Translations under genes and position numbers: made by a program
Notes under the pieces: generated by a model
Told to the model about the DNA's origin: nothing
Databases searched by the model: none
What the model saw: only the letters and a program-made list of their open reading frames with translations
In this document: positions 4,885 to 23,878 of the stretch, one piece after another
How positions within the stretch are numbered: the stretch's first letter is position 1
How the letters are laid out: each line of letters opens with the position of its first letter
Source: a virus
Direction: 5' to 3' (one strand)
DNA length: 33,666 nucleotides
Virus genome (UHGV): UHGV-0338553

Positions 4885-7476
4885 GTGGCGACGAAGTACG
4901 AAGGCATAGTGATCGAACTGGGGGCTGATACGTCAGACCTTCAGTCGGCCATGCGCCAAGTCAATTCCGCCGCGTCGAAGACCCAAAAAGAACTGAACCA
5001 GATCAAGACCGCGCTGAAGTTCAATCCGGGGAACATGACGCTGCTTGCGCAGCAGACCGGCCAGCTGTCGAACAAGGTCGAGCAGACCAAAGACCGCCTG
5101 AAGGTTCTGCGCTCGCAGCTGCAAGCCATGTCCCAAGACCAAAGCAAGATCGGCACCGACGAATGGGACAAGCTTCAGCGCGAGATCATCCAGACCGAAA
5201 GCAAGCTTGAATCCTACGAAGCGCAGCTGAAGCAGGCGGAGAGGGCGCAGCAGTCGGCCAGCACGTCGCTCGGCCAGCTGTCCGCGAAGATGCAGGCGAA
5301 CGCCGACAGGTTCAGGGATATCGGCAGCAGCATACGCAACGTCGGCGTTGGCATGACCGCAGGCCTTACGGTTCCGCTCGTCGCCGCAGGCTCGCAGGCC
5401 GTCAGCACCGCCGCGACCTTCGATGATGCCATGTCGCAGGTTTCCGGCGCGCTCGGCGACGCGGGCGCGGACATGGACGGGTTGCGCACGCTCGCGCTTC
5501 AGCTGGGCGCTGACACGGTGTTCTCGGCAACCGAAGCCGGTCAGGCCATGGTCGAGTTGGCGAAGGGCGGTCTGACCGAAGCAGACATCAAGTCCGGCGC
5601 GCTCGAAGCGTCGATGAACCTCGCTGCGGCAGGCGGCCTTGAACTTGCCACCGCCGCGAACGCCACGGTTCAGTCGATGGGCGCGTTCGGGCTTGCGGCT
5701 GGCGATGCGAGCGTCATCGCGAACGCGCTCGCCGGGTCTGCAAACGCTTCGTCCGCCGACGTGGCAGACCTCACGCAGGCCATGTCCCAATGCTCGGCAC
5801 AGGCGAACCTCGTCGGGTGGGATATCCAGGACACAGCCGCCGTCCTCGGCATGTTCGCCGACGCGGGCATACAAGGCTCCGACGCTGGCACGAGCCTGAA
5901 GACCATGCTACAGCGCCTTGCAGCGCCGACCGACAAGGCGGCTGACGCGGTGGCGGAACTTGGCTTGCAGGTGCGCGACCAGGACGGCCACATGCGCAGC
6001 GCGAGCGAGATAGCCGCAGAACTGCAAACGAAACTCGGCGGCTTGTCCGACGCGCAGCGCGACGCTGCCATGCAGACCATCTTCGGCAGCGACGCGAGCC
6101 GCGCCGCCGCCGTCATGATGACGCAGGGCGCGGACGGGCTTGCGAAGTACACCGAAGCGACCCACGACGCGACCGCAGCCGAAACGATGGCGGCGGCGCA
6201 GAAGGGCGAACTGTCGTGGGCGATGGAGAACATGGAGGGCGCGATAGAGAGCGCGTCCATCGCGCTGGGAACCGCGCTCGCTCCCGCCATCCAGGCCGTC
6301 GCCGGATTCGTCGGCGACCTCGCGACGTGGTTCAGCGAACTAGACCCGTCCATGCAGACGGTCGTTGCCGTGGCGCTCGCGCTCGTCGCCGCGCTCGGCC
6401 CGATTCTGACCATCGTCGGGATGATCATCATGGCGCTTCCCGGACTGACGGCAGGCCTTTCGATGGTTGCAGGTGCGATCAGCCTTCCGCTCGCCCCTAT
6501 CGCCGCCGTCGTGGCTGCGGTCGGCGCGGTCATCGCGATCATCGTCTACCTTTGGAACACCAACAGCGAGTTCCAAGCCGCCGTCATGAACATCTGGACT
6601 GAAATCCAGAACCTGTTCGCGACGGTGATGCCGATCATTCAGCAGATATTCGAAGTGGTCTGGCCGACCATACAGGCAATCGTGACCGGCGTTCTCGACA
6701 CGATTCTTGCGGTTGTCGGAACCGTGTTCACGGCCATCGCCGACCAGATATCGACGATACTCGCGATGGTGACGGGCGTGATTCAGGGCGCGTGGGACGT
6801 GATATCGGGCATCTTCCAAACCGTTCTCGGCCTGATCGTCGGCATAGTCACCGGCGACTTCTCGATGATGCAGGACGGCATAAGCAGCATCCTGAACGGA
6901 ATCACGGGGATAGTAACGAGCGTTTGGAACGGCATCGCATCCACGATCACGAACGTGGTGAACACCATCGCAAGCGTCGTTTCCGACGTGTTCAACGGCG
7001 TGTCGAACACGGTCGGCAGCATCTTCGGCAGCATCGCCGACACGATAGGCAACGCAATAGGCGACGCTAAGAACGTCGTTTCTGACGGACTGAACGCGAT
7101 TGCCAACTTCTTCAGCGGGCTGCACCTCGAATTCCCGAAGTTCACGCTTCCGCATTTCACGGTTTCAGGCTCCTTCAGCCTTAACCCGCCGTCCATACCG
7201 ACGTTCGGCGTTGAATGGTACGCGAAGGGCGGCATCATCAACAAGCCCTCCGTGATCGGCGTTGGCGAAGCTGGCGCTGAAGCCGTCATGCCGCTGGCGA
7301 AGCTGCCCGAACTGATGGCCGAAGCGTTGCAGATGGTGCGCGGCGGCAGCGGCGGCGGCACCGTGATCGTGCAGAACATGACCGTTGGGAAGGAAAGCGA
7401 CATTCGCGGCGTAGCCCAAGAACTGTACCGGTTGGGGCAGCGCGCCGCGCGCGTGGAAGGCACGGTGTACGCATGA
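4885..7476 (+). CDS. Tail tape measure protein
   Basis: 863 aa, GTG start. N-terminal coiled coil, central Ala/Gly-rich region, C-terminal hydrophobic repeats (…IxxVxxxI…) typical of tape measure proteins. It follows the chaperone pair. Confidence 0.85.
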   Translation: MATKYEGIVIELGADTSDLQSAMRQVNSAASKTQKELNQIKTALKFNPGNMTLLAQQTGQLSNKVEQTKDRLKVLRSQLQAMSQDQSKIGTDEWDKLQREIIQTESKLESYEAQLKQAERAQQSASTSLGQLSAKMQANADRFRDIGSSIRNVGVGMTAGLTVPLVAAGSQAVSTAATFDDAMSQVSGALGDAGADMDGLRTLALQLGADTVFSATEAGQAMVELAKGGLTEADIKSGALEASMNLAAAGGLELATAANATVQSMGAFGLAAGDASVIANALAGSANASSADVADLTQAMSQCSAQANLVGWDIQDTAAVLGMFADAGIQGSDAGTSLKTMLQRLAAPTDKAADAVAELGLQVRDQDGHMRSASEIAAELQTKLGGLSDAQRDAAMQTIFGSDASRAAAVMMTQGADGLAKYTEATHDATAAETMAAAQKGELSWAMENMEGAIESASIALGTALAPAIQAVAGFVGDLATWFSELDPSMQTVVAVALALVAALGPILTIVGMIIMALPGLTAGLSMVAGAISLPLAPIAAVVAAVGAVIAIIVYLWNTNSEFQAAVMNIWTEIQNLFATVMPIIQQIFEVVWPTIQAIVTGVLDTILAVVGTVFTAIADQISTILAMVTGVIQGAWDVISGIFQTVLGLIVGIVTGDFSMMQDGISSILNGITGIVTSVWNGIASTITNVVNTIASVVSDVFNGVSNTVGSIFGSIADTIGNAIGDAKNVVSDGLNAIANFFSGLHLEFPKFTLPHFTVSGSFSLNPPSIPTFGVEWYAKGGIINKPSVIGVGEAGAEAVMPLAKLPELMAEALQMVRGGSGGGTVIVQNMTVGKESDIRGVAQELYRLGQRAARVEGTVYA

Positions 7477-10410: not shown

Positions 10411-10800
10411 ATGGGCAACATCCTGTACTACCTCGCGCACGACCCTGTAGGAAATTGCGAATGGCAGGTAAGCGACTTCGATAGATCTGCGCTCGCCAAG
10501 AACGCTGAAAACAACATCGTGTTCATAGCCGTTGACGAGAGCGGCAACCGCGAGATCGTGGACGCGTCAGAGGTCGTTGAGCCGCCCGCGATGGGGGAAC
10601 CGCTTGTTCTCGTCCAGCCTGTCTACGTTGACGAGCGCATGATGGCCACGGTAGCCGTTTTCGATGCCCTTGCGGCAGACCTGTACCCGTCCGCCGCCGT
10701 AATGACCATGAGCGCCGAAGCCGCTGATTCTGCCGCTGAAGGTGGGTTCATGGCGGCGGTCGCACGACTGAAGGGACTGGTTTATGGCAAGCAAGATTAG
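10411..10800 (+). CDS. Hypothetical tail/baseplate-associated protein
   Basis: AAGGAGGA RBS 8 nt upstream of the ATG at 10411. 129 aa. Lies in the tail-fibre region. Confidence 0.5.
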   Translation: MGNILYYLAHDPVGNCEWQVSDFDRSALAKNAENNIVFIAVDESGNREIVDASEVVEPPAMGEPLVLVQPVYVDERMMATVAVFDALAADLYPSAAVMTMSAEAADSAAEGGFMAAVARLKGLVYGKQD

Positions 10801-11839
10801 CGAAGCATGGTATCTGCGCCCGCTGACCATCGACACGGCCTACCAGCGCGCCATCGAAGACATGGTGGCTTCGCCGGAGGACGCGAAGGGCAAGGGAATC
10901 GACCTGACCCTGAAGTGCAACGGCGAAGCCGTTGACACCACGGGCTGCACGGTGATTCTCGGCTGGCGCAACCTCAACTCCGGCAAGAGCAACTCGCGCC
11001 TGTTCGATGCCGTCAGCGCGGCTTCCGGTCGATGGAAGGTCACGTACCCGACCGAAATGCTGACACCCGGCGTGGTGCTTGCGCGCGTGATCATCAAGCT
11101 TTCTGCAACCGGCAGCGTCATCACGTCAAGCCGCGAGTTCAGGATAATCGTCGAACACTCCATCACCAACGACATAACGGGCGGCTCGAACGACGATCTG
11201 TCGATGTTCCAGCAGGCCGTCGCCGACCTGACGGCGACGAACGACGCGGTGGCGAAGGCCGAGACTAAGCGGGTGGAAGCCGAGCAAGCCCGCGCCGCCG
11301 CAGAGCAGGAGCGCTTGCGCGCCGAATCGATGCGCATCGACAACGAATCGACGCGCATCGATTCCGAGACGGACAGGACAACGGCAGAGAGCGAGCGCGC
11401 CGCCGCTGAAAAGACGCGCGTCGTAAACGAGGAAGGCCGAACCCGGAGCGAAAGCGAAAGGTCGCGAGCGGAAAGCGAAAGAGCAGCCGCCGAAGAAGAC
11501 CGCGTGTCCGAATTCGCCGAGTTGAAAAGCCAATCGCAATCAGCGACGAACGCAGCAGACGGGGCGGCGAGAAAGGCCAACGCAGCCGCAGACAACGCCA
11601 ACGCCGCCGCCGCAACCGCGTCGAACGTGGTCGCGGAAGCCGTCAAGGCTCTGTCGCAGCAGGACGGCGACAGCGAAGCCGCGCAGATCGACGCTTTGGC
11701 GAAGCTTCTGCGCGAAGATTACGGATGCTTCTACCTTGCGAACACCATGTGGACGAAATCAAGCGACACGACCTATGCGGCCAACACGATCACGCTCGCC
11801 TGTTCAACCTACGCAAGCGGCAATATCACACTAGGATAG
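10784..11839 (+). CDS. BppU-like baseplate / tail fibre protein with central coiled-coil repeats
   Basis: 351 aa. The N-terminal ~150 aa is BppU_N-like. The central segment is a degenerate E/R/A-rich repeat (…SERAAAE…ESERSRAESERAAAEE…). It lies upstream of the DGR target gene. Confidence 0.5.
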   Translation: MASKISEAWYLRPLTIDTAYQRAIEDMVASPEDAKGKGIDLTLKCNGEAVDTTGCTVILGWRNLNSGKSNSRLFDAVSAASGRWKVTYPTEMLTPGVVLARVIIKLSATGSVITSSREFRIIVEHSITNDITGGSNDDLSMFQQAVADLTATNDAVAKAETKRVEAEQARAAAEQERLRAESMRIDNESTRIDSETDRTTAESERAAAEKTRVVNEEGRTRSESERSRAESERAAAEEDRVSEFAELKSQSQSATNAADGAARKANAAADNANAAAATASNVVAEAVKALSQQDGDSEAAQIDALAKLLREDYGCFYLANTMWTKSSDTTYAANTITLACSTYASGNITLG

Positions 11840-11851
11840 GAGAATAAAACC

Positions 11852-12751
11852 ATGGCAGACGTGAACTACATCACCGACAAAAACGGGAACAAGGTCAACA
11901 TCGCAGACCTGACGGCGCGCACCAACGCATCGACGGCGCTGCTCGAATCGGAGTACAACCGCCAGCTTGCCGACAACGTGTACGCTGGGCGCGACATTAG
12001 CACCATCACGGCGCTTGCGAGCGAGATCGCTTCGGCAGGGAGCATCCCCGCGTTCCTGAACGCCCGCGCGAAGGCCGGAAACTTCAACGGGCTGCGCATC
12101 GGCGACTGGACTGATATCGTCCTTTCGAGTGGCGTAACCATGCGCTACCAGATAGCCGCCTTCGACCACTACTACAACTGCGCCGATGCGGCCATGGGAC
12201 ACCACATCGTCATGGTTCCGACCTCCACCCCGGCAGTCACCGGCGACTACGCCATCAACGGAAGCTACATCTACTGGAACACCACCAACACCAACAACGG
12301 AACAGCCGACGAGAGCAACCCGTATCTTGCGAGCAACCTCCACGCCTGGGAAACCGGCGTGTTCCTCCCGCTCATGCCCACGGCTTGGCAGAACGTAATG
12401 CGCAACCATCGCAGCCTTGTTGAAACGCGGTACTCGGCTTCCGGCGCGCTCACCGACAGCACAAGTTGGAAATGGGCGGACTTGGGCAAAATCTGGTCGC
12501 CGTCCGAAATGGAAGTGTACGGTTGCCCGATCTGGGGGACGAAGGGCTACGGTCAGGGCATGGACAGCCAGTTCCCGATATTCCGCGAGACGAAGAACCG
12601 CATCAAAGGTCGCATCTATTGGTGGCTTCGCTCCGTGTCGGGAGGTTCTTCGGTTAACGCGTGCTGCGTCGGCCACGGTGGCTATGCCTACTACACCTCC
12701 CCGACGTACACGTGGGTTCGCCCCTTGCCCTGCTTCCTCATTGGAGCGTAA
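11852..12751 (+). CDS. DGR target (variable) protein, probable receptor-binding / fibre-tip protein with C-terminal C-type-lectin-like variable region
   Basis: AGGAGAA RBS. 299 aa. The last ~43 codons (…GRIYWWLRSVSGGSSVNACCVGHGGYAYYTSPTYTWVRPLPCF) are the VR copy of a downstream TR. All VR/TR differences fall on TR adenines, mostly in AAC/AAT codons. Confidence 0.8.
   Translation: MADVNYITDKNGNKVNIADLTARTNASTALLESEYNRQLADNVYAGRDISTITALASEIASAGSIPAFLNARAKAGNFNGLRIGDWTDIVLSSGVTMRYQIAAFDHYYNCADAAMGHHIVMVPTSTPAVTGDYAINGSYIYWNTTNTNNGTADESNPYLASNLHAWETGVFLPLMPTAWQNVMRNHRSLVETRYSASGALTDSTSWKWADLGKIWSPSEMEVYGCPIWGTKGYGQGMDSQFPIFRETKNRIKGRIYWWLRSVSGGSSVNACCVGHGGYAYYTSPTYTWVRPLPCFLIGA
12608..12737 (+). 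repeat. DGR variable repeat (VR)
   Basis: 130 bp, with 118/130 identity to 13326..13455. All 12 mismatches are positions where TR has A and VR has T, G or C. Both copies share the GC-rich 3' end GTGGGTTCGCCCCTTGCCCTG. Confidence 0.85.
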
Positions 12752-12774
12752 GAGCCATCTACCGTATACTTATC

Positions 12775-12797
12775 TGCGCCCGCCTTGCGCGGGCGCA
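12775..12797 (+). promoter_or_regulatory. GC-rich hairpin downstream of VR (9-bp stem TGCGCCCGC/GCGGGCGCA, loop CTTGC); a second 6-bp-stem hairpin lies at 12801..12815
   Basis: A perfect inverted repeat can be read directly. It lies 38 bp 3' of the VR end, where DGR target-recognition hairpins sit in characterised DGRs. Confidence 0.4.
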
Positions 12798-12835
12798 ATT
12801 ACCCGCGAAGCGGGTCGGTTTTTGGAGGGGTGTTT

Positions 12836-13303
12836 TTGAGCGTCTACCAACGAAAGCGCAACCTGTCTGACTACGAATTCTACTCGCGCGCAATCGCGAT
12901 ACGCGTCGAGGTGAACAAGCTTATGGCATCGCCGAACGTGGTGCCGAAAAGCTACCGGCTTCTGAACGCGGTGCCGACCGTCGAGACGGCGCGTTCCATC
13001 GTCTACAACATAACGCGAGCCGACCAGTTCTTCCCGAACACGTCCTTCAACGTCCTTGAGCGCCGGAAATACCTCACGCTTGCAATCGCCGACTGCGAAC
13101 AGCTGTGCCTTGACTTCCAATGCCTGCTCGAACTCGGCCTTCCGATCAACGTGAACAGGTTCGATGCGGTGGTTGAATCAATCGAGTTGGAGATATCGCT
13201 GCTGAAGGGCGCGCGAAAGAACGTGAAGCTGGTCGGCAAGCAGAGCGCCGAAGACCTCATTGAATCGACCGCCGCCGAACTGGAAAGGCTCCGTGCGCTA
13301 TAA
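12836..13303 (+). CDS. avd: Putative DGR accessory variability determinant (Avd-like four-helix-bundle protein)
   Basis: A small basic protein encoded between VR and TR. A TTG at 12836 is preceded by GGAGGGG. The alternative ATG at 12785 lies inside the VR-downstream hairpin. Assignment rests on position and weak similarity to the S23 / four-helix-bundle family. Confidence 0.45.
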   Translation: MSVYQRKRNLSDYEFYSRAIAIRVEVNKLMASPNVVPKSYRLLNAVPTVETARSIVYNITRADQFFPNTSFNVLERRKYLTLAIADCEQLCLDFQCLLELGLPINVNRFDAVVESIELEISLLKGARKNVKLVGKQSAEDLIESTAAELERLRAL

Positions 13304-13325
13304 TGGGCGAACGTTACGCTTTGCT

Positions 13326-13455
13326 GGTCGCATCAATTGGTGGCTTCGCTCCGTGTCGGGAGGTTCTTCGGTTAACGCGTGCTACGTCAACAACAATGGC
13401 AATGCCAACTACAACTCCCCGACGAACACGTGGGTTCGCCCCTTGCCCTGATTCC
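13326..13455 (+). ncRNA. DGR template repeat (TR)
   Basis: Cognate of the VR. Contains 25 adenines, 12 of which differ in VR. The AAC AAC AAT GGC AAT GCC AAC TAC AAC stretch is in frame with the VR codons. The predicted ORFs 13260..13451 and 13303..13671 across it are judged non-coding. Confidence 0.85.
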
Positions 13456-13559
13456 GCTGAACGGCCAGACCGAGTAGGGACATGCCCGAAAGCAGAGCCT
13501 GTAGAGGAAGGAAGGCGTGACGTTCGGGCTTGGGCCCGTGAATCTGCACCCCGCGAGGG

Positions 13560-14846
13560 ATGGCGGACGCTGCTTGCATGGCGGCGCGCTTCGGCGTTCA
13601 GCGCCGTTTCATGCCATCTTCTCATGCGGATACCGAACGCTGCGCTGCAATCCGTGCGGGGTGCCTTTTGAAATCCGAGGAACGAAGGCGGGCGCGCCGC
13701 GCGCGGCGCGAGGAAAAGCGCGCGGAGAAGCGCCGCGAGCGCTTGGCATCCTGCACGATGGAAAACGTCGCCGACCTGAACAGCCTTTACCGCGCCGCCG
13801 TTAAGGCTAAGAACGGCATCGCGTGGAAATCGTCGGTTCAAAGGTACGAGAAGGACGTGCTGCGCAACATCGTCAAGGCGCGCCGCGACCTTCTTGCCGG
13901 AAACGACGTTCGGCGAGGGTTCCACGAGTTCCAGCTGTACGAACGCGGGAAGCTTCGCAACATTTCGAGCGTCCATATCTCCGAAAGGGTGATTCACAAG
14001 TCGCTGTCGGTGAACGCCCTCGTCCCGGCGCTCACGCCCTCGTTCATCTTGGACAACTCGGCCAACACGAAAGGCCGTGGCACCGACTTCGCCATCAGAA
14101 GGCTGAAGAAGCAGCTTGTCGCCCACTACCGCGCGCACGGGAAAAGCGGGTACATCCTCCTTATCGACTTCAGCAACTACTTCGCGTCCATCGCGCACGA
14201 CCCGCTGAAGGAGATCGTTCGAGCCGCGCTTGACGATGAAAGGATTGTCGCGCTGACGCACGGCTTCATCGACGCGTGCGGCGACGTGGGCTTGGGTCTT
14301 GGCAGCGAGCCGAACCAGATATGCGCCGTTGCGTTCCCCTCGTCAATCGACCATTACGTGACCGAAATGCTGGGCGTGGAAGCCTACGGGCGCTACATGG
14401 ACGATTCCTACTGCCTGCATGAATCGAAGGAGTACCTTCAGGTCGTTCTTGCGCTCATAGAGCGGAAATGCGCGGAACTTGGAATCGAGATCAACCGGAA
14501 GAAGACCCACATCGTGAAGCTGTCACACGGTTTCACGTGGCTGAAGAAGAAGATAAGCTACGGCGACAACGGCAAGATCGTCATGCGCCCATGCCGGGAA
14601 TCCATCACGCGAGAGCGCAGGAAGCTGAAGAAGATGGCTCGTTTCGTCGCTTCCGGGGACATGACCTTTGAGCAAGTCGAAAGATCGTACCAGTCTTGGC
14701 GCGGCTCGATGCTCCGGCTCGATGCGCATAAGACGGTGCTTGCGATGGACGCGCTGTTCGCGTCGTTGTTCGAATCGAAAAACCTCCCACGGGGGGGGGG
14801 TCTGATTAACTGCGCTTTCCCGGCTGCGCGGCGCTTGGCCGCATGA
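13560..14846 (+). CDS. DGR reverse transcriptase
   Basis: RT domain with LIDFSNYFASI (motif 2-like), GLGLGSEPNQ (DGR-type motif 4) and RYMDDSY (YxDD). It lies directly 3' of the TR. The start is uncertain. The ORF opens at 13560, and alternative starts are the TTG at 13668 (GGGGTG upstream) or the ATG at 13758. A G10 homopolymer sits at 14791-14800 near the 3' end. Confidence 0.85.
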   Translation: MADAACMAARFGVQRRFMPSSHADTERCAAIRAGCLLKSEERRRARRARREEKRAEKRRERLASCTMENVADLNSLYRAAVKAKNGIAWKSSVQRYEKDVLRNIVKARRDLLAGNDVRRGFHEFQLYERGKLRNISSVHISERVIHKSLSVNALVPALTPSFILDNSANTKGRGTDFAIRRLKKQLVAHYRAHGKSGYILLIDFSNYFASIAHDPLKEIVRAALDDERIVALTHGFIDACGDVGLGLGSEPNQICAVAFPSSIDHYVTEMLGVEAYGRYMDDSYCLHESKEYLQVVLALIERKCAELGIEINRKKTHIVKLSHGFTWLKKKISYGDNGKIVMRPCRESITRERRKLKKMARFVASGDMTFEQVERSYQSWRGSMLRLDAHKTVLAMDALFASLFESKNLPRGGGLINCAFPAARRLAA

Positions 14847-14850
14847 GCGG

Positions 14851-14878
14851 CGAAAACCCCTGACACGCTTTCTATCCT
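14851..14878 (+). repeat. 28-nt intergenic motif CGAAAACCCCTGACACG(C/G)TTTCTATCCT, copy 1
   Basis: 27/28 identical to 32942..32969. Both copies are intergenic: RT-to-lysis-cassette here, terminase-to-portal there. Confidence 0.7.
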
Positions 14879-14906
14879 GTTAATAGGGAAACAACAGGAT
14901 AGAAAG
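14868..14906 (+). promoter_or_regulatory. Perfect 14-bp-stem hairpin (CTTTCTATCCTGTT / AACAGGATAGAAAG, 11-nt loop) after the RT gene
   Basis: Read directly from the sequence. There is no downstream T-tract, so it is not a canonical intrinsic terminator. The 3' arm overlaps the SD (GAAAGGG) of the next gene. The 5' arm belongs to a 28-nt motif repeated at 32942..32969. Confidence 0.5.
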
Positions 14907-17438: not shown

Positions 17439-17780
17439 ATGATGGCAACCAGAAAGACAACCACCGCGAAGGCTACGCCAGCAAAGGACGTAAAAGCGAC
17501 ACCGGCTGAAGCCCCGCAGGACGCACCGGTCGAGGCCGCACAGGCACCGGCTGAAGCCCCGCAGGACGCACCGGTCGAAGACCAGTACCCTGTCATCGTT
17601 TGCAGCGAAGACACGCGCATCACGAAAATCGTCCTGCGCGACAATCCATCCGTTGAGAACGATAACGATGCCTTGATTGTTCCCGTTGGGACGAAGCTGC
17701 GCGCTGTTGAGGACATGGGCGAGTGGACGAAGCTTACCCACGACCTTTTCATCATGTCCAAGTTCGTCAAGAAGCTTTAA
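17439..17780 (+). CDS. Hypothetical protein: disordered Pro/Ala-rich N-terminus with tandem repeat + C-terminal SH3-like fold
   Basis: AAAGGA RBS. 113 aa. The DNA carries a 45-bp-period tandem repeat (17503..17579) encoding APAEAPQDAPVE twice. Last gene before the terminator. Confidence 0.45.
   Translation: MMATRKTTTAKATPAKDVKATPAEAPQDAPVEAAQAPAEAPQDAPVEDQYPVIVCSEDTRITKIVLRDNPSVENDNDALIVPVGTKLRAVEDMGEWTKLTHDLFIMSKFVKKL
17503..17579 (+). repeat. Tandem repeat, 2 copies of a 32-nt core with 45-bp period
   Basis: CCGGCTGAAGCCCCGCAGGACGCACCGGTCGA occurs at 17503-17534 and 17548-17579. Confidence 0.8.
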
Positions 17781-19419
17781 GTGATACGACCAGCCCAAAA
17801 CCATGTTCAAGCATGAGTATCGGCGTTCCGTTTTCGGTGTACAACGTCTCAAAAGGATACCCGTTTGACGTTCGTTTTGACATGCGATTGGGGCACCATT
17901 TGGAAGTTTCACGAACGGCCTGTTGATCAGGCCGTTCGTGTTTTTTCAAAGCAAGTTCTATCTCATATTGCGTGCTTTCGCACGAATCAAAGTTCATCAC
18001 GGCCACGGCGGTGCTTTCATACAGCCAAACTTTAGATACAAAAGTAAGCGTGATCTGCTCGTCCGACAACGCGCCCTTCGACATATCAGAGAAGAACGCT
18101 CGGAGTTCTTCTCTGCTGACACTGTTTTGCTCGCGCTTCAATTCCTCTATGCGCTTCTCCAAAGCGCGCTCTTGCGCATCGAGCGCGGCAATTTTCGGCT
18201 TTACGTGATTAAAATCAAGGCCTTCAGCGACCGCTGACAAAAGATTGTCGCGCTGCTTTTTTACCGCTCTTATGTCTTTCCTTACTGCTTCTATGGTTGC
18301 CTTCGACTGACGTTCATCCCTAAACTGGATATGCCTGTCAATTAGATAATCAACCAGCGCGGCATCGCGTAGCATTTCGCGCACGCCTGAAACAACTCCT
18401 TGTTCTACAGTCTCTTTATTGAACGACCCCAAGCACGCCTTGCGTTTCCCCCGGCAGCTATAACGCCAGTATTCGATGCCGCTTCCGCCAATTGCGGTTT
18501 CGCCGTGCATAGGCTCTTTGCACTTGGAGCATATTAGCTTCCCGGAAAGCAGGTAGTCGGCATTCGTCTTCAAACGCCTTCTGAATCCCAACTTTTCGAT
18601 GCAAGACAGCTTTTGCGACATGCTCACAATCGCTGGCATACCGTCTTCTATGTATACAAGGGGAACGGGTCGCCCGAGATCATCAAGCACGTCATTTCCA
18701 GCTTCGTCTTTTTTTACACCCCACATATATACGCCCGCGTAGCGCACGTTCTTCAACATGCTTACAACGAAACCGTATCCGGGGTCTTTGCCGCGCGCCG
18801 TTTTCACTCCGATACTCAACAGCCAATCCAGTATCTGCTTCGGCGCTACACCCGAAAGAAAATCGACGTGGATGCGTTTTGCAATGGGCGCTTTCTCCGG
18901 GTCAAGCGTGATCTTGTCGCCATCGTGGCTATAACCGTACAACGGATAGCCCAGGTACTGGCACTTCCTAGCTTTGCCAAGCATACCACGCATCGTATCT
19001 TCCGCGCTCTGCCGTGATCTGACTTCGGCGAACAGCGCGTTCAAAGCCTTCGTGCTGGTCGCTTCGATTGACGTACCGGCGATGTTCTCTTTCACCGATT
19101 CGAAAGTCACTCCGCCGTTCTTGCGCAGCACGTGTTCGTAATAGTATTGCTCCTCGATGTTCCGCGCGAACCTATCCATCTTCCAAACAAGGATTATTTC
19201 AAACATGCCCGTCTTTGCATCCTCGATCATGCGCAAGAAATTCGGGCGGTCATCGCTTCTGCCACTCATGGCGTAGTCGCAATATTGCATCACGACAGTG
19301 TACCCGTGGCGCTCGGCGTATTTATTGCATTCATAAAGCTGATCTTCTATGGACGCATCGCGCTGTTTGTCACAACTGAATCGCGCATAGATGGCTACAC
19401 GAATTAGCTTGCGAGACAT
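17767..19419 (-). CDS. Large serine recombinase (phage integrase)
   Basis: N-terminal resolvase catalytic domain (RVAIYARFSCDKQ…SIEDQ), recombinase domain, Cys-rich zinc ribbon (CSKCKEP…CRGKRKAC), and coiled-coil motif. 550 aa. The C-terminal ~55 aa may be extension. Confidence 0.9.
   Translation of the reverse strand: MSRKLIRVAIYARFSCDKQRDASIEDQLYECNKYAERHGYTVVMQYCDYAMSGRSDDRPNFLRMIEDAKTGMFEIILVWKMDRFARNIEEQYYYEHVLRKNGGVTFESVKENIAGTSIEATSTKALNALFAEVRSRQSAEDTMRGMLGKARKCQYLGYPLYGYSHDGDKITLDPEKAPIAKRIHVDFLSGVAPKQILDWLLSIGVKTARGKDPGYGFVVSMLKNVRYAGVYMWGVKKDEAGNDVLDDLGRPVPLVYIEDGMPAIVSMSQKLSCIEKLGFRRRLKTNADYLLSGKLICSKCKEPMHGETAIGGSGIEYWRYSCRGKRKACLGSFNKETVEQGVVSGVREMLRDAALVDYLIDRHIQFRDERQSKATIEAVRKDIRAVKKQRDNLLSAVAEGLDFNHVKPKIAALDAQERALEKRIEELKREQNSVSREELRAFFSDMSKGALSDEQITLTFVSKVWLYESTAVAVMNFDSCESTQYEIELALKKHERPDQQAVRETSKWCPNRMSKRTSNGYPFETLYTENGTPILMLEHGFGLVVSLKAS
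17910..17946 (+). terminator. Rho-independent terminator for the late/lysis operon
   Basis: 13-bp perfect stem CACGAACGGCCTG/CAGGCCGTTCGTG, loop TTGAT, followed by TTTTTT. It lies inside the 3' coding region of the minus-strand integrase ORF. Confidence 0.7.
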
Positions 19420-22359: not shown

Positions 22360-22676
22360 GCGAAGAAGAATACATGAACGTCATCTACAGGAAGACCGAA
22401 CAGGGCATGCGGTGCGAATTCGCCGTCCACTCCACGCTTGTACGCGAGTTCGTGGAGGAAATCATAGACAACTGCTTCGACGCGAAGGTTGAGTGCGACC
22501 CGAACTTTGCGCTGGGCTTCGCCGCAGCCATCGACGCGTTCACCCATGGCCGCATCGACTTCAGAGGTGCGGTTCCGACCGTGAACGACGCGTGGCACGA
22601 CGTGAACGACGTGACGGGCAGGCCGTGCCGCGTGACCGACTGCATGCGCGTCTACTGCGACGGGGCGGTGTCGTAG
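22356..22676 (+). CDS. Hypothetical protein
   Basis: ATGA overlap. 106 aa. Confidence 0.5.
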   Translation: MSEEEYMNVIYRKTEQGMRCEFAVHSTLVREFVEEIIDNCFDAKVECDPNFALGFAAAIDAFTHGRIDFRGAVPTVNDAWHDVNDVTGRPCRVTDCMRVYCDGAVS

Positions 22677-23878
22677 TGAAGCCTGTCGTGATAAAGCACC
22701 ATGCGGACGGCACGCCCTACGCAAGGCCGTACCTTGGCATCAACGCCGTTACCAAAGCGCCGATGCGCCCGTACAAGCGCTTCCCCGAAGCCGCCAACGA
22801 CGAGGAAGCGCAGGAAATGGCGCAGGAGTGGGTGAACACCATCGCGGCGGCTGCTGATCTGCACGTGAGCGTGAAGCTTGTTGAAATGCTCGCGCGCTAC
22901 ATCGACCGGCTTGAAGCGAACGGCAAGTCACCGAACACGATCAAGACGTACCGGTCGCTGCTGCAATGCTATGTCGCGCCGAACGTCGGCAACGTCGGCG
23001 TTGGCGAACTGAAGCCCTACATGGTCGATGGCCTGTACAACGTCATCCTGATGCGCGAGAGCCGCAAGGGCGGAACCATATCGCCCAACACGGTCATCAA
23101 GCTTCACTGGTTCCTGTCGGGAGCGTACCGCTACTTCGTCCGCGAAGGCGTGTGCGAGTTCAACCCCATGCTGTCGGTGACGAAGCCGGAACGCGATCTG
23201 ACCGAAGCCGTAGCGTTCAACGAATCGGAATTCAACGTCTTGTCGAAGGCGCTCGCGAAGGCCGTCAACGAGCCTGCGGAGAGCCGCGAAGCGATCTTCA
23301 GGCGCAACGCCATGTTCTCGGCGTACCTCGCCCTGTGGAACGGCGAGCGCTGCGGAGAAGTGCTTGCGAACAGCAAGGCCGATGCGCAGCTTTTCAGGCA
23401 GCTGATGCACATCGGAAACACGCTCGTGGAGAAGAAGGGGCATCTGTACCGCAAGCCCAAGCCGAAGTCCAAGCGCAGCCGCAACATATCCATCTACGAT
23501 GACGTGTGCGCGAACATCGAACGGCACTACGAATGGCAGGCCGAATACCTTCCCGCCGCGAAGCAGAACGACTACAACCGCATGATCTGCTGCACGGCTG
23601 ACGGCGGGCTTATGCGCCCTTCGACGGTCAGCACGGAGTTCAGCGCCCTGCTCAAAACGCTCGGCCTGCCTCGCGGCACCAGCTACCACACGCTGCGCCA
23701 TACGCACGCGACCTGGCTGCTGCTTCAGGGGGTCGATCTGAAGACCATCGCAGAGCGGCTAGGGCATGCCAACGAAGCAACCACGCTGTCGCTCTACGCG
23801 CACGTCATGCCGGGGCGCGACGAAATGGCCGCAGCGGCCTTCGCGGAAGCCGCAAAGCGGATGGGCGGTGCGCTATGA
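22676..23878 (+). CDS. Tyrosine-type site-specific recombinase (phage integrase family)
   Basis: GTG at 22676 overlaps the upstream TAG. The track ORF from 22493 is rejected. C-terminal catalytic motifs SYHTLRHTHAT and LGHANEATTLSLYAHV (R…H-x-x-R…Y). N-terminal SAM-like domain. It lies inside an operon of ATGA-coupled genes. Confidence 0.8.
   Translation: MKPVVIKHHADGTPYARPYLGINAVTKAPMRPYKRFPEAANDEEAQEMAQEWVNTIAAAADLHVSVKLVEMLARYIDRLEANGKSPNTIKTYRSLLQCYVAPNVGNVGVGELKPYMVDGLYNVILMRESRKGGTISPNTVIKLHWFLSGAYRYFVREGVCEFNPMLSVTKPERDLTEAVAFNESEFNVLSKALAKAVNEPAESREAIFRRNAMFSAYLALWNGERCGEVLANSKADAQLFRQLMHIGNTLVEKKGHLYRKPKPKSKRSRNISIYDDVCANIERHYEWQAEYLPAAKQNDYNRMICCTADGGLMRPSTVSTEFSALLKTLGLPRGTSYHTLRHTHATWLLLQGVDLKTIAERLGHANEATTLSLYAHVMPGRDEMAAAAFAEAAKRMGGAL

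Follow-up and report, generated by a model that had tools for sequence, protein, structure and literature searches.

The virus genome UHGV-0338553 (33,666 nucleotides, here referred to as the window) carries on its plus strand a complete cassette of a diversity-generating retroelement (DGR), namely, a target gene whose 3' end holds a variable repeat (VR), an accessory gene, a template repeat (TR), a structured RNA and a reverse transcriptase (RT) gene (Table 1). The genome is that of a temperate siphovirus-like phage, with genes for a capsid protein, tape measure, Dit, Tal, a BppU_N baseplate protein, a holin, a GH25 endolysin, recombinases and TerL. Taken together, the observations below make it very probable that the region is the core of a DGR, intact and recently active, of a temperate Eggerthella lenta phage of siphovirus type.

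Table 1. Features of the DGR cassette and recombinase genes of the window
Feature	Position	Strand	Remarks
DGR target gene, 299 aa	11852..12751	+	C-terminal DUF6273 (C-type-lectin-fold) domain
Variable repeat (VR)	12608..12737	+	direct-repeat comparison, allele and family comparisons
GC-rich hairpin, 9 bp, CTTGC loop	12775..12797	+	24 nt past stop codon; DNA fold
Second hairpin with T-run, terminator-like	12801..12825	+	hairpin also in relatives
Accessory gene, predicted Avd fold, 155 aa	12836..13303	+	TTG start; GGAGG at 12824-12828
Long-range RNA duplex, 5' arm GAACGTTACGCTTT	13309..13322	+	just upstream of TR; pairs with 13512-13525
Template repeat (TR)	13326..13455	+	25 adenines including nine AAY codons in VR frame
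Structured RNA, Rfam RT-2 (RF03077)	13460..13684	+	covariance model; TR-to-RT spacer, overlaps RT start
Invariant GGAAGGAAGG motif	13506..13515	+	immediately 5' of duplex arm; invariant alignment columns
Long-range RNA duplex, 3' arm AAGGCGTGACGTTC	13512..13525	+	within stretch unpaired in Rfam RT-2 model
Reverse transcriptase, 392 aa	13668..14846	+	TTG start; R/K-rich N-terminal extension, YMDD, LGSEPNQ
Recombinase genes	17767..19419 and 22493..23878	- and +

VR and TR form a 130-nt direct repeat with 91% identity, of which the window holds no third copy. All 12 mismatches among the 130 positions fall on the 25 adenines of TR, as a first-pass annotation of the sequence had counted, and the probability that 12 randomly placed mismatches would all do so is 1.8e-10. 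The adenines are replaced in VR by G (five), T (four) or C (two, plus a C at 12733), and because all three products occur, the pattern is not one of deamination. The codon block to which that annotation drew attention was also quoted correctly: AAC AAC AAT GGC AAT GCC AAC TAC AAC in TR corresponds to GGC CAC GGT GGC TAT GCC TAC TAC ACC in VR, i.e., the residues NNNGNANYN become GHGGYAYYT.

The mismatch at 12733, counted there as one of the substitutions, is of another kind. TR has TGA and VR has TGC at this codon, the encoded cysteine is constant in 14 of 14 protein alleles, and the same VR-C/TR-A difference is found in a 65%-identical cassette (L001), in contig L004 and in each of the 71 related loci whose TR could be recognised. 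The homology between VR and TR ends four bases past it, and the 3' segment of VR in which it lies (12711-12737) is free of adenine, GC-rich and otherwise identical to TR, resembling an initiation of mutagenic homing (IMH) element. Mutagenesis did not produce this mismatch, which is a fixed difference at the boundary, of the IMH/IMH* type; the true footprint of the window allele is therefore 11 of 23 non-silent mutable adenines, and the GC-rich 3' element and its end difference may set the direction of transfer. The mutagenised segment of VR is 12614-12710 (aa 255-287). In the copied part of TR, 23 of the 24 adenines stand at codon position 1 or 2 (binomial p=7.7e-4), in nine AAY, two TAC, two ACG and one ATC codon, with one silent GGA. 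When the TGA codon beyond the transfer boundary is removed from the count, no stop codon can be reached from these adenines and the theoretical repertoire amounts to about 3.9e13 proteins, which bears out the earlier remark on adenine placement without stops, a textbook feature of such elements. Read in the frame of VR, TR itself lies in an open reading frame (ORF) of 63 aa (13260-13451, +) that ends at the TR-specific TGA (13449-13451); this ORF and another of 122 aa over the TR/RT-2 region (13303-13671, +) are most likely artefacts of high G+C content.

The same footprint recurs in other alleles of the phage. The 90%-identity cluster of the target protein contains 738 distinct sequences, and its named members come from Eggerthella lenta. 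Among 14 full-length protein alleles, 13 of the 14 TR codons that contain a non-silent adenine are variable (aa 255, 256, 269, 272, 274-276, 278, 280-282, 285 and 286), compared with two sites among the 252 residues elsewhere in the protein. The one codon left, aa 287, is variable in DNA allele L005, and when the 14 protein alleles are taken together with three further DNA alleles, all from the same phage, no such codon is invariant. Over 10.9 kb, the window and the metagenomic contig L002 differ only by 12 mismatches, all of them in VR at TR-adenine positions, and by 2 nt in the length of a poly-G tract; the two TRs are identical. Adenine-specific differences between TR and VR are thereby seen in many alleles on identical backbones, and their directionality is plain, TR being invariant and VR varying between otherwise identical elements. 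The exact VR/TR pattern was found in three contigs of metagenome_contigs only, with no match in viral_contigs, and a blastn search (distant mode) with 10784-14900 gave no match in the phage collection.

Beyond this phage, 71 related loci from Collinsella, Gordonibacter, Adlercreutzia, Olsenella, Senegalimassilia and other Coriobacteriia were compared. At these loci 635 of 652 VR/TR mismatches occur at adenines of TR and 17 at other bases, so that differences between homologues at non-adenine positions, which the first-pass annotation had named as evidence that would speak against its reading, are confined to those 17, and the DGR reading passed. Adenines are replaced by G (303), T (173) and C (159), and 1474 of 1484 TR adenines occupy codon position 1 or 2. 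Family-wide, 635 of the 1484 adenines (43%) are substituted; that roughly half of them are kept as A in any one allele is the outcome expected of stochastic misincorporation. The spectrum of outcomes is skewed. Hydrophobic NTY outcomes are depleted in family VRs, and in loci L006-L085 TAC in TR gives only TGC in VR (30 cases, with no TTC and no TCC), while A-to-T changes are rare at codon position 2 (20/273) compared with position 1 (160/380). Some selection at the protein level, against hydrophobic residues, probably exists, and either this or a context bias of the RT may have caused the skew.

Three individual sequences show departures of their own. In L017, from an uncultured Collinsella metagenome-assembled genome (MAG), VR differs from TR at one adenine in the 100-nt core, and the element is either freshly reset or inactive. 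Contig L004 (OGYA01001892.1) carries the cassette on its reverse strand, with repeats at 5238-5372 and 5967-6101; the 3' half of its VR differs from its own TR only at adenines, whereas the 5' half shows many non-adenine differences and has window-type sequence instead, which points to homing that was partial (3'-anchored) or to recombination among related phages. The E. lenta protein WP_220149939.1 (P0123, 339 aa) represents a frameshifted VR allele corresponding to 12671-12870 of the window: past aa 274, inside the AAC-AAC-AAT block, the frame is lost, and the protein runs on in the ORF that occupies the +1 frame in the window (12661-12870). This could be a DGR-associated indel that yields a null receptor-binding protein, or a sequencing error.

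The target protein matches Pfam DUF6273 (PF19789) above the gathering threshold, and the first-pass reading of an adenine-specific DGR footprint in a domain with a C-type-lectin fold agrees with these results. The variable residues 255-287 map to a beta-hairpin and its flanking loops; from this location, and from published models of other DUF6273 targets, they would be expected to be exposed. A BppU_N baseplate gene (10784-11839) lies directly upstream, and the target is likely a receptor-binding protein of the tail or baseplate. In a Coriobacteriaceae MAG a 510-aa protein (P0113) joins BppU_N (baseplate upper protein) and the DUF6273 target domain in one natural fusion, which supports a joint action in the baseplate of the two proteins that are encoded separately in the window.

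The RT has profile matches to RVT_1 (E 4e-13) and phrog_1423 (E 2e-71), and its best match in the PDB is the DGR RT of a Bordetella phage (8ub7_A, E 2.3e-14), compared with 2.7e-5 for a group II maturase; in NCBIfam only sub-threshold matches, to other RT classes, were obtained. The residues of the Bordetella RT (bRT) that contact template and dNTP in the 8ub7_A structure (F66, R74, I76, G182, Q187 and the catalytic aspartates) are kept, i.e., F66, R74, I76, D138, G182, Q187 and D215/216 are all present, with I181 replaced by L. In the motif LGSEPNQ, N takes the place of S in the [I/L/V]GxxxSQ-type motif. The start at TTG 13668 was set by homology, as relatives have ATG, GTG or TTG at this position and stop codons just upstream, and the R/K-rich N-terminus is common to the RT and all relatives compared. 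Two other starts were rejected: a 428-aa ORF from ATG 13560 overlaps the structured RT-2 RNA, and the upstream stops of relatives force a start homologous to 13668, while the 349-aa version from ATG 13758 (as annotated in L002) would omit the conserved N-terminus. Near the 3' end of the gene a poly-G tract (14791-14800) counts ten G in the window, eight in L002 and nine in L005, which shifts the frame of the last, non-conserved residues only (...PRGGGLINCAFPAARRLAA in the window, ...PRGGSD in L002); the conserved RT core of relatives stops just short of the tract (...MDALFxxLF), and the variation is probably slippage or assembly noise and not regulation. The accessory protein has no match in Pfam, NCBIfam, PHROGs or the PDB, either as a single sequence or as a profile, and is assigned an Avd fold from its predicted structure.

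The spacer between TR and the RT gene is occupied by a full-length match to the Rfam RT-2 model (129.2 bits, with the gathering score at 40; E ~6e-32), and RT-2 directly follows TR in 16 of 16 related loci scanned. A stretch that is unpaired in the Rfam model pairs with the 5' flank of TR to form a long-range duplex: in 35 distinct sequences of the family, 88% of cells pair compared with 40-58% in slid controls, the covariation score is 0.259 compared with at most 0.088 in controls, and seven pairs have changed on both sides. The invariant GGAAGGAAGG motif, which adjoins this duplex, faces the likewise invariant 3' end of TR, GAUUCC, and its GGAA is complementary to the terminal UUCC (13452-13455). 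By its position, which resembles that of Sp47-56 in phage BPP-1, the motif may hypothetically be the primer strand. A blind search for helices between TR and RT-2 returned candidates (e.g., columns 75-85 with 365-375) that are GC-driven and lie within the coding part of TR; they were not accepted, because they compete with stems supported by Rfam and sit in protein-constrained sequence.

Downstream of VR, the stem of the hairpin at 12775-12797 covaries strongly. The loop motif GCCTTG[CT]GC lies 30-42 nt past the target stop codon in 78 of 82 loci, 88% of stem cells are paired (22-54% in slid controls), eight pairs have changed on both sides, and the covariation score is 0.47 compared with at most 0.10 in controls. 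It may be the positional analogue of the target-recognition hairpin/cruciform of BPP-1. In Olsenella sp. Marseille-P4559 (L031) the loop, about 45-65 nt past the target stop, reads GCAAGG instead of CCTTGC, as though the whole hairpin had been turned round. All parts of a DGR are present and intact, and two of its nucleic-acid structures covary.

A mechanism can be proposed from these parts, in which cis-priming and the roles of Avd, the hairpin and the target are assigned by analogy with BPP-1. An RNA would be transcribed that spans the 3' flank of avd, TR and the RT-2 RNA; a sigma-70 promoter scan for a promoter of this RNA found nothing. TR would be looped out by the duplex between its 5' flank (13309-13322) and RT-2 (13512-13525), and the RT, together with the Avd-fold protein, would prime in cis from the RT-2 RNA and copy TR to cDNA, misincorporating at template adenines. 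This cDNA would then take the place of VR in the tail-protein gene; the GC-rich 3' segment without adenine that both repeats have in common would guide it, and so, probably, would the conserved hairpin downstream of VR. As a result, 14 codons (aa 255-287) in the C-type-lectin-fold domain could be recoded, giving up to ~4e13 receptor-binding variants with no reachable stops.

How much of the pattern is due to mutagenesis, and how much to selection, bears on a claim of the first-pass annotation, namely that selection on a single defined ligand-binding surface concentrates the substitutions in the AAC/AAT block, adenines outside being protected. Eight of the 12 mismatches of the window allele do fall inside this 27-nt block, and the family outcomes described above (TAC to TGC only, few A-to-T changes at codon position 2) suggest some filtering of proteins. 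However, eight of 13 block adenines are changed compared with four of 12 outside, a difference that is not significant (Fisher p=0.24), and the outside adenines are not untouched, since 12617, 12666, 12707 and 12733 are changed in the window allele itself. In other alleles aa 255, 256, 269, 272, 285, 286 and 287, all outside the block, are variable; the supposedly untouched GTT-AAC-GCG codon (aa 269) encodes N, Y, S, R, H or V. As every non-silent adenine-bearing codon varies among same-phage alleles, the kept adenines do not mark a selected surface, and confinement to the block is improbable. Origin of the repeats by ordinary duplication and divergence, or of the changes by A-to-I type deamination, is more remote still: duplication can give direct repeats of such size and A-to-G is the commonest change, but the adenine-only pattern has the very low random probability given above, T and C products accompany G, one copy varies while the other stays constant, and an RT, an Avd-fold protein and a DGR-type RNA lie alongside.

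A real footprint could also have been left by an element that is no longer active, with old alleles spread by descent or recombination. The near-identity of VR and TR in L017, the frameshift within VR of P0123 and the recombinant appearance of L004 are what such a fossil might show. Against it stand the intact RT, Avd, TR and RT-2 RNA, the two contigs that are 100% identical over 10.9 kb outside VR and yet differ at 12 adenine sites within it, the 738 distinct sequences in one 90% cluster, and the diversification of a related E. lenta prophage DGR within four days of chemostat culture (PMC8778435), so that this explanation, too, is given little weight. For the intact and recently active DGR, several points weigh on the other side. 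Its activity is deduced from variation in the population, and that variation could in principle be older than the genomes sampled. No relation of the target to Mtd (PDB 1YU0) was detectable by sequence or Foldseek, so it does not belong to the Mtd family, and the label 'mtd' is functional only, the target being no homologue of Mtd. The priming site and a primer:template duplex were not located; what is conserved is the 4-bp GGAA:UUCC, which is invariant on both sides and shows no covariation. Finally, when folded by minimum free energy (MFE), the entire RNA from TR to RT is no stabler than shuffled sequences (z = +0.9), for which reason single-sequence folding was replaced by Rfam and covariation analysis.

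The closest described elements are the DGRs of E. lenta prophages, published in 2022 (Microorganisms, PMC8778435), which occur in five of ten prophage clades. Clade 7 prophages have the order mtd-avd-TR-ert and VR/TR repeats of 130 bp with more than 90% identity, and are near-identical apart from VR; for a clade 4 prophage, DGR activity was shown in a chemostat. The window resembles clade 7 especially, and also clades 3, 4 and 10, in its host species (E. lenta, by the annotation of cluster members), in the order target-avd-TR-RT, in repeats of 130 bp that are more than 90% identical, in the location of VR at the 3' end of a tail-region gene and in near-identity of the phages except in VR. As both the kind of element and the E. 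lenta prophage DGRs had been published, the finding as such was already known. The RT-2 RNA, the long-range duplex, the VR hairpin and the fixed VR/TR boundary difference described here do not appear in that paper; these four additions, together with corrected starts for RT and avd, are refinements. They provide a well-annotated example with exact bounds of the mutagenised segment, a fixed boundary base and start codons (RT TTG 13668, avd TTG 12836), in which the DGR marks the likely receptor-binding protein of the phage and points to recent diversification in E. lenta populations of the human gut.

Compared with the DGR of Bordetella phage BPP-1 (mtd-avd-TR-brt), for which cryo-EM structures of bRT-Avd-RNA (8UB7 series; bioRxiv 10.1101/2023.10.23.563531) were used, the window shares the gene order, adenine-specific transfer from TR to VR, AAY codons, GC-rich 3' homology with a VR/TR end difference, a hairpin downstream of VR, an accessory protein of predicted Avd fold and the RT residues that contact template and dNTP. 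RT-2 occupies the TR-to-RT spacer as does the priming/scaffold RNA 'Sp' of BPP-1, and the long-range duplex matches the avd:Sp 'cPRT Stop' duplex. The neighbouring elements follow in the same order in both, i.e., a post-TR stem-loop (bound by Avd in BPP-1), a conserved single strand (which in BPP-1 is the primer strand), the duplex with the TR 5' flank, a short stem-loop, an A-rich single strand and a larger structured domain. Unlike in BPP-1, the target is a DUF6273 protein without detectable relation to Mtd, Avd is alike in fold only, the spacer RNA is Rfam RT-2 whereas that of BPP-1 is RT-10 (PMC5737381), the RT motif is LGSEPNQ instead of IGSLTSQ, the hairpin has a 5-nt CTTGC loop and lies ~38 nt beyond the end of homology, and the host is a Gram-positive actinobacterium.

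Weinberg et al. found 'RT' motifs including RT-2 adjoining RT genes, with RT-10 in the TR-RT spacer of BPP-1, and speculated that other RT motifs serve other DGRs (PMC5737381). The results link the orphan Rfam family RT-2 to a DGR reverse-transcription RNA. It appears somewhat more plausible than not that RT-2 is the priming/scaffold RNA of the whole Coriobacteriia-phage DGR lineage, and that its functional unit is larger than the Rfam model, with elements mapping one-to-one onto the Sp RNA of BPP-1 despite the lack of sequence similarity. If so, it would offer an independent natural system for the cis-priming and 'stop duplex' model, and would explain why TR keeps A where VR keeps C. Conservation of DGR RNA architecture was claimed by Handa et al., and the refinements made here agree with that claim; the RT-2 link, the covarying duplex and the VR hairpin support the idea, derived from the Bordetella phage structure, that the reverse-transcription RNA keeps its architecture even between distant phyla.

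That DGRs target DUF6273 domains, which are C-type-lectin-like, has also been published (PMC10743442, PMC11792537). The DUF6273 targets of gut Firmicutes phages ('tentaclins' of the Faecalibacterium prophages Lelie, CP11, Roos and Pioen) belong to a different host phylum, and unlike the 'tentaclin' with its Ig repeats, the window target is short and single-domain and follows a BppU_N baseplate gene. TvpA of Treponema denticola (PDB 2Y3C) has 10% sequence identity to the window target, was not recovered with it by Foldseek, and is a bacterial surface lipoprotein and no phage tail protein.

Outside the cassette lie genes for a large serine recombinase (Resolvase, Recombinase and Zn_ribbon_recom domains) and for a tyrosine recombinase (Phage_integrase). 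The paper on E. lenta prophages reports only tyrosine integrases (PMC8778435), whereas the window has the large serine recombinase in addition.

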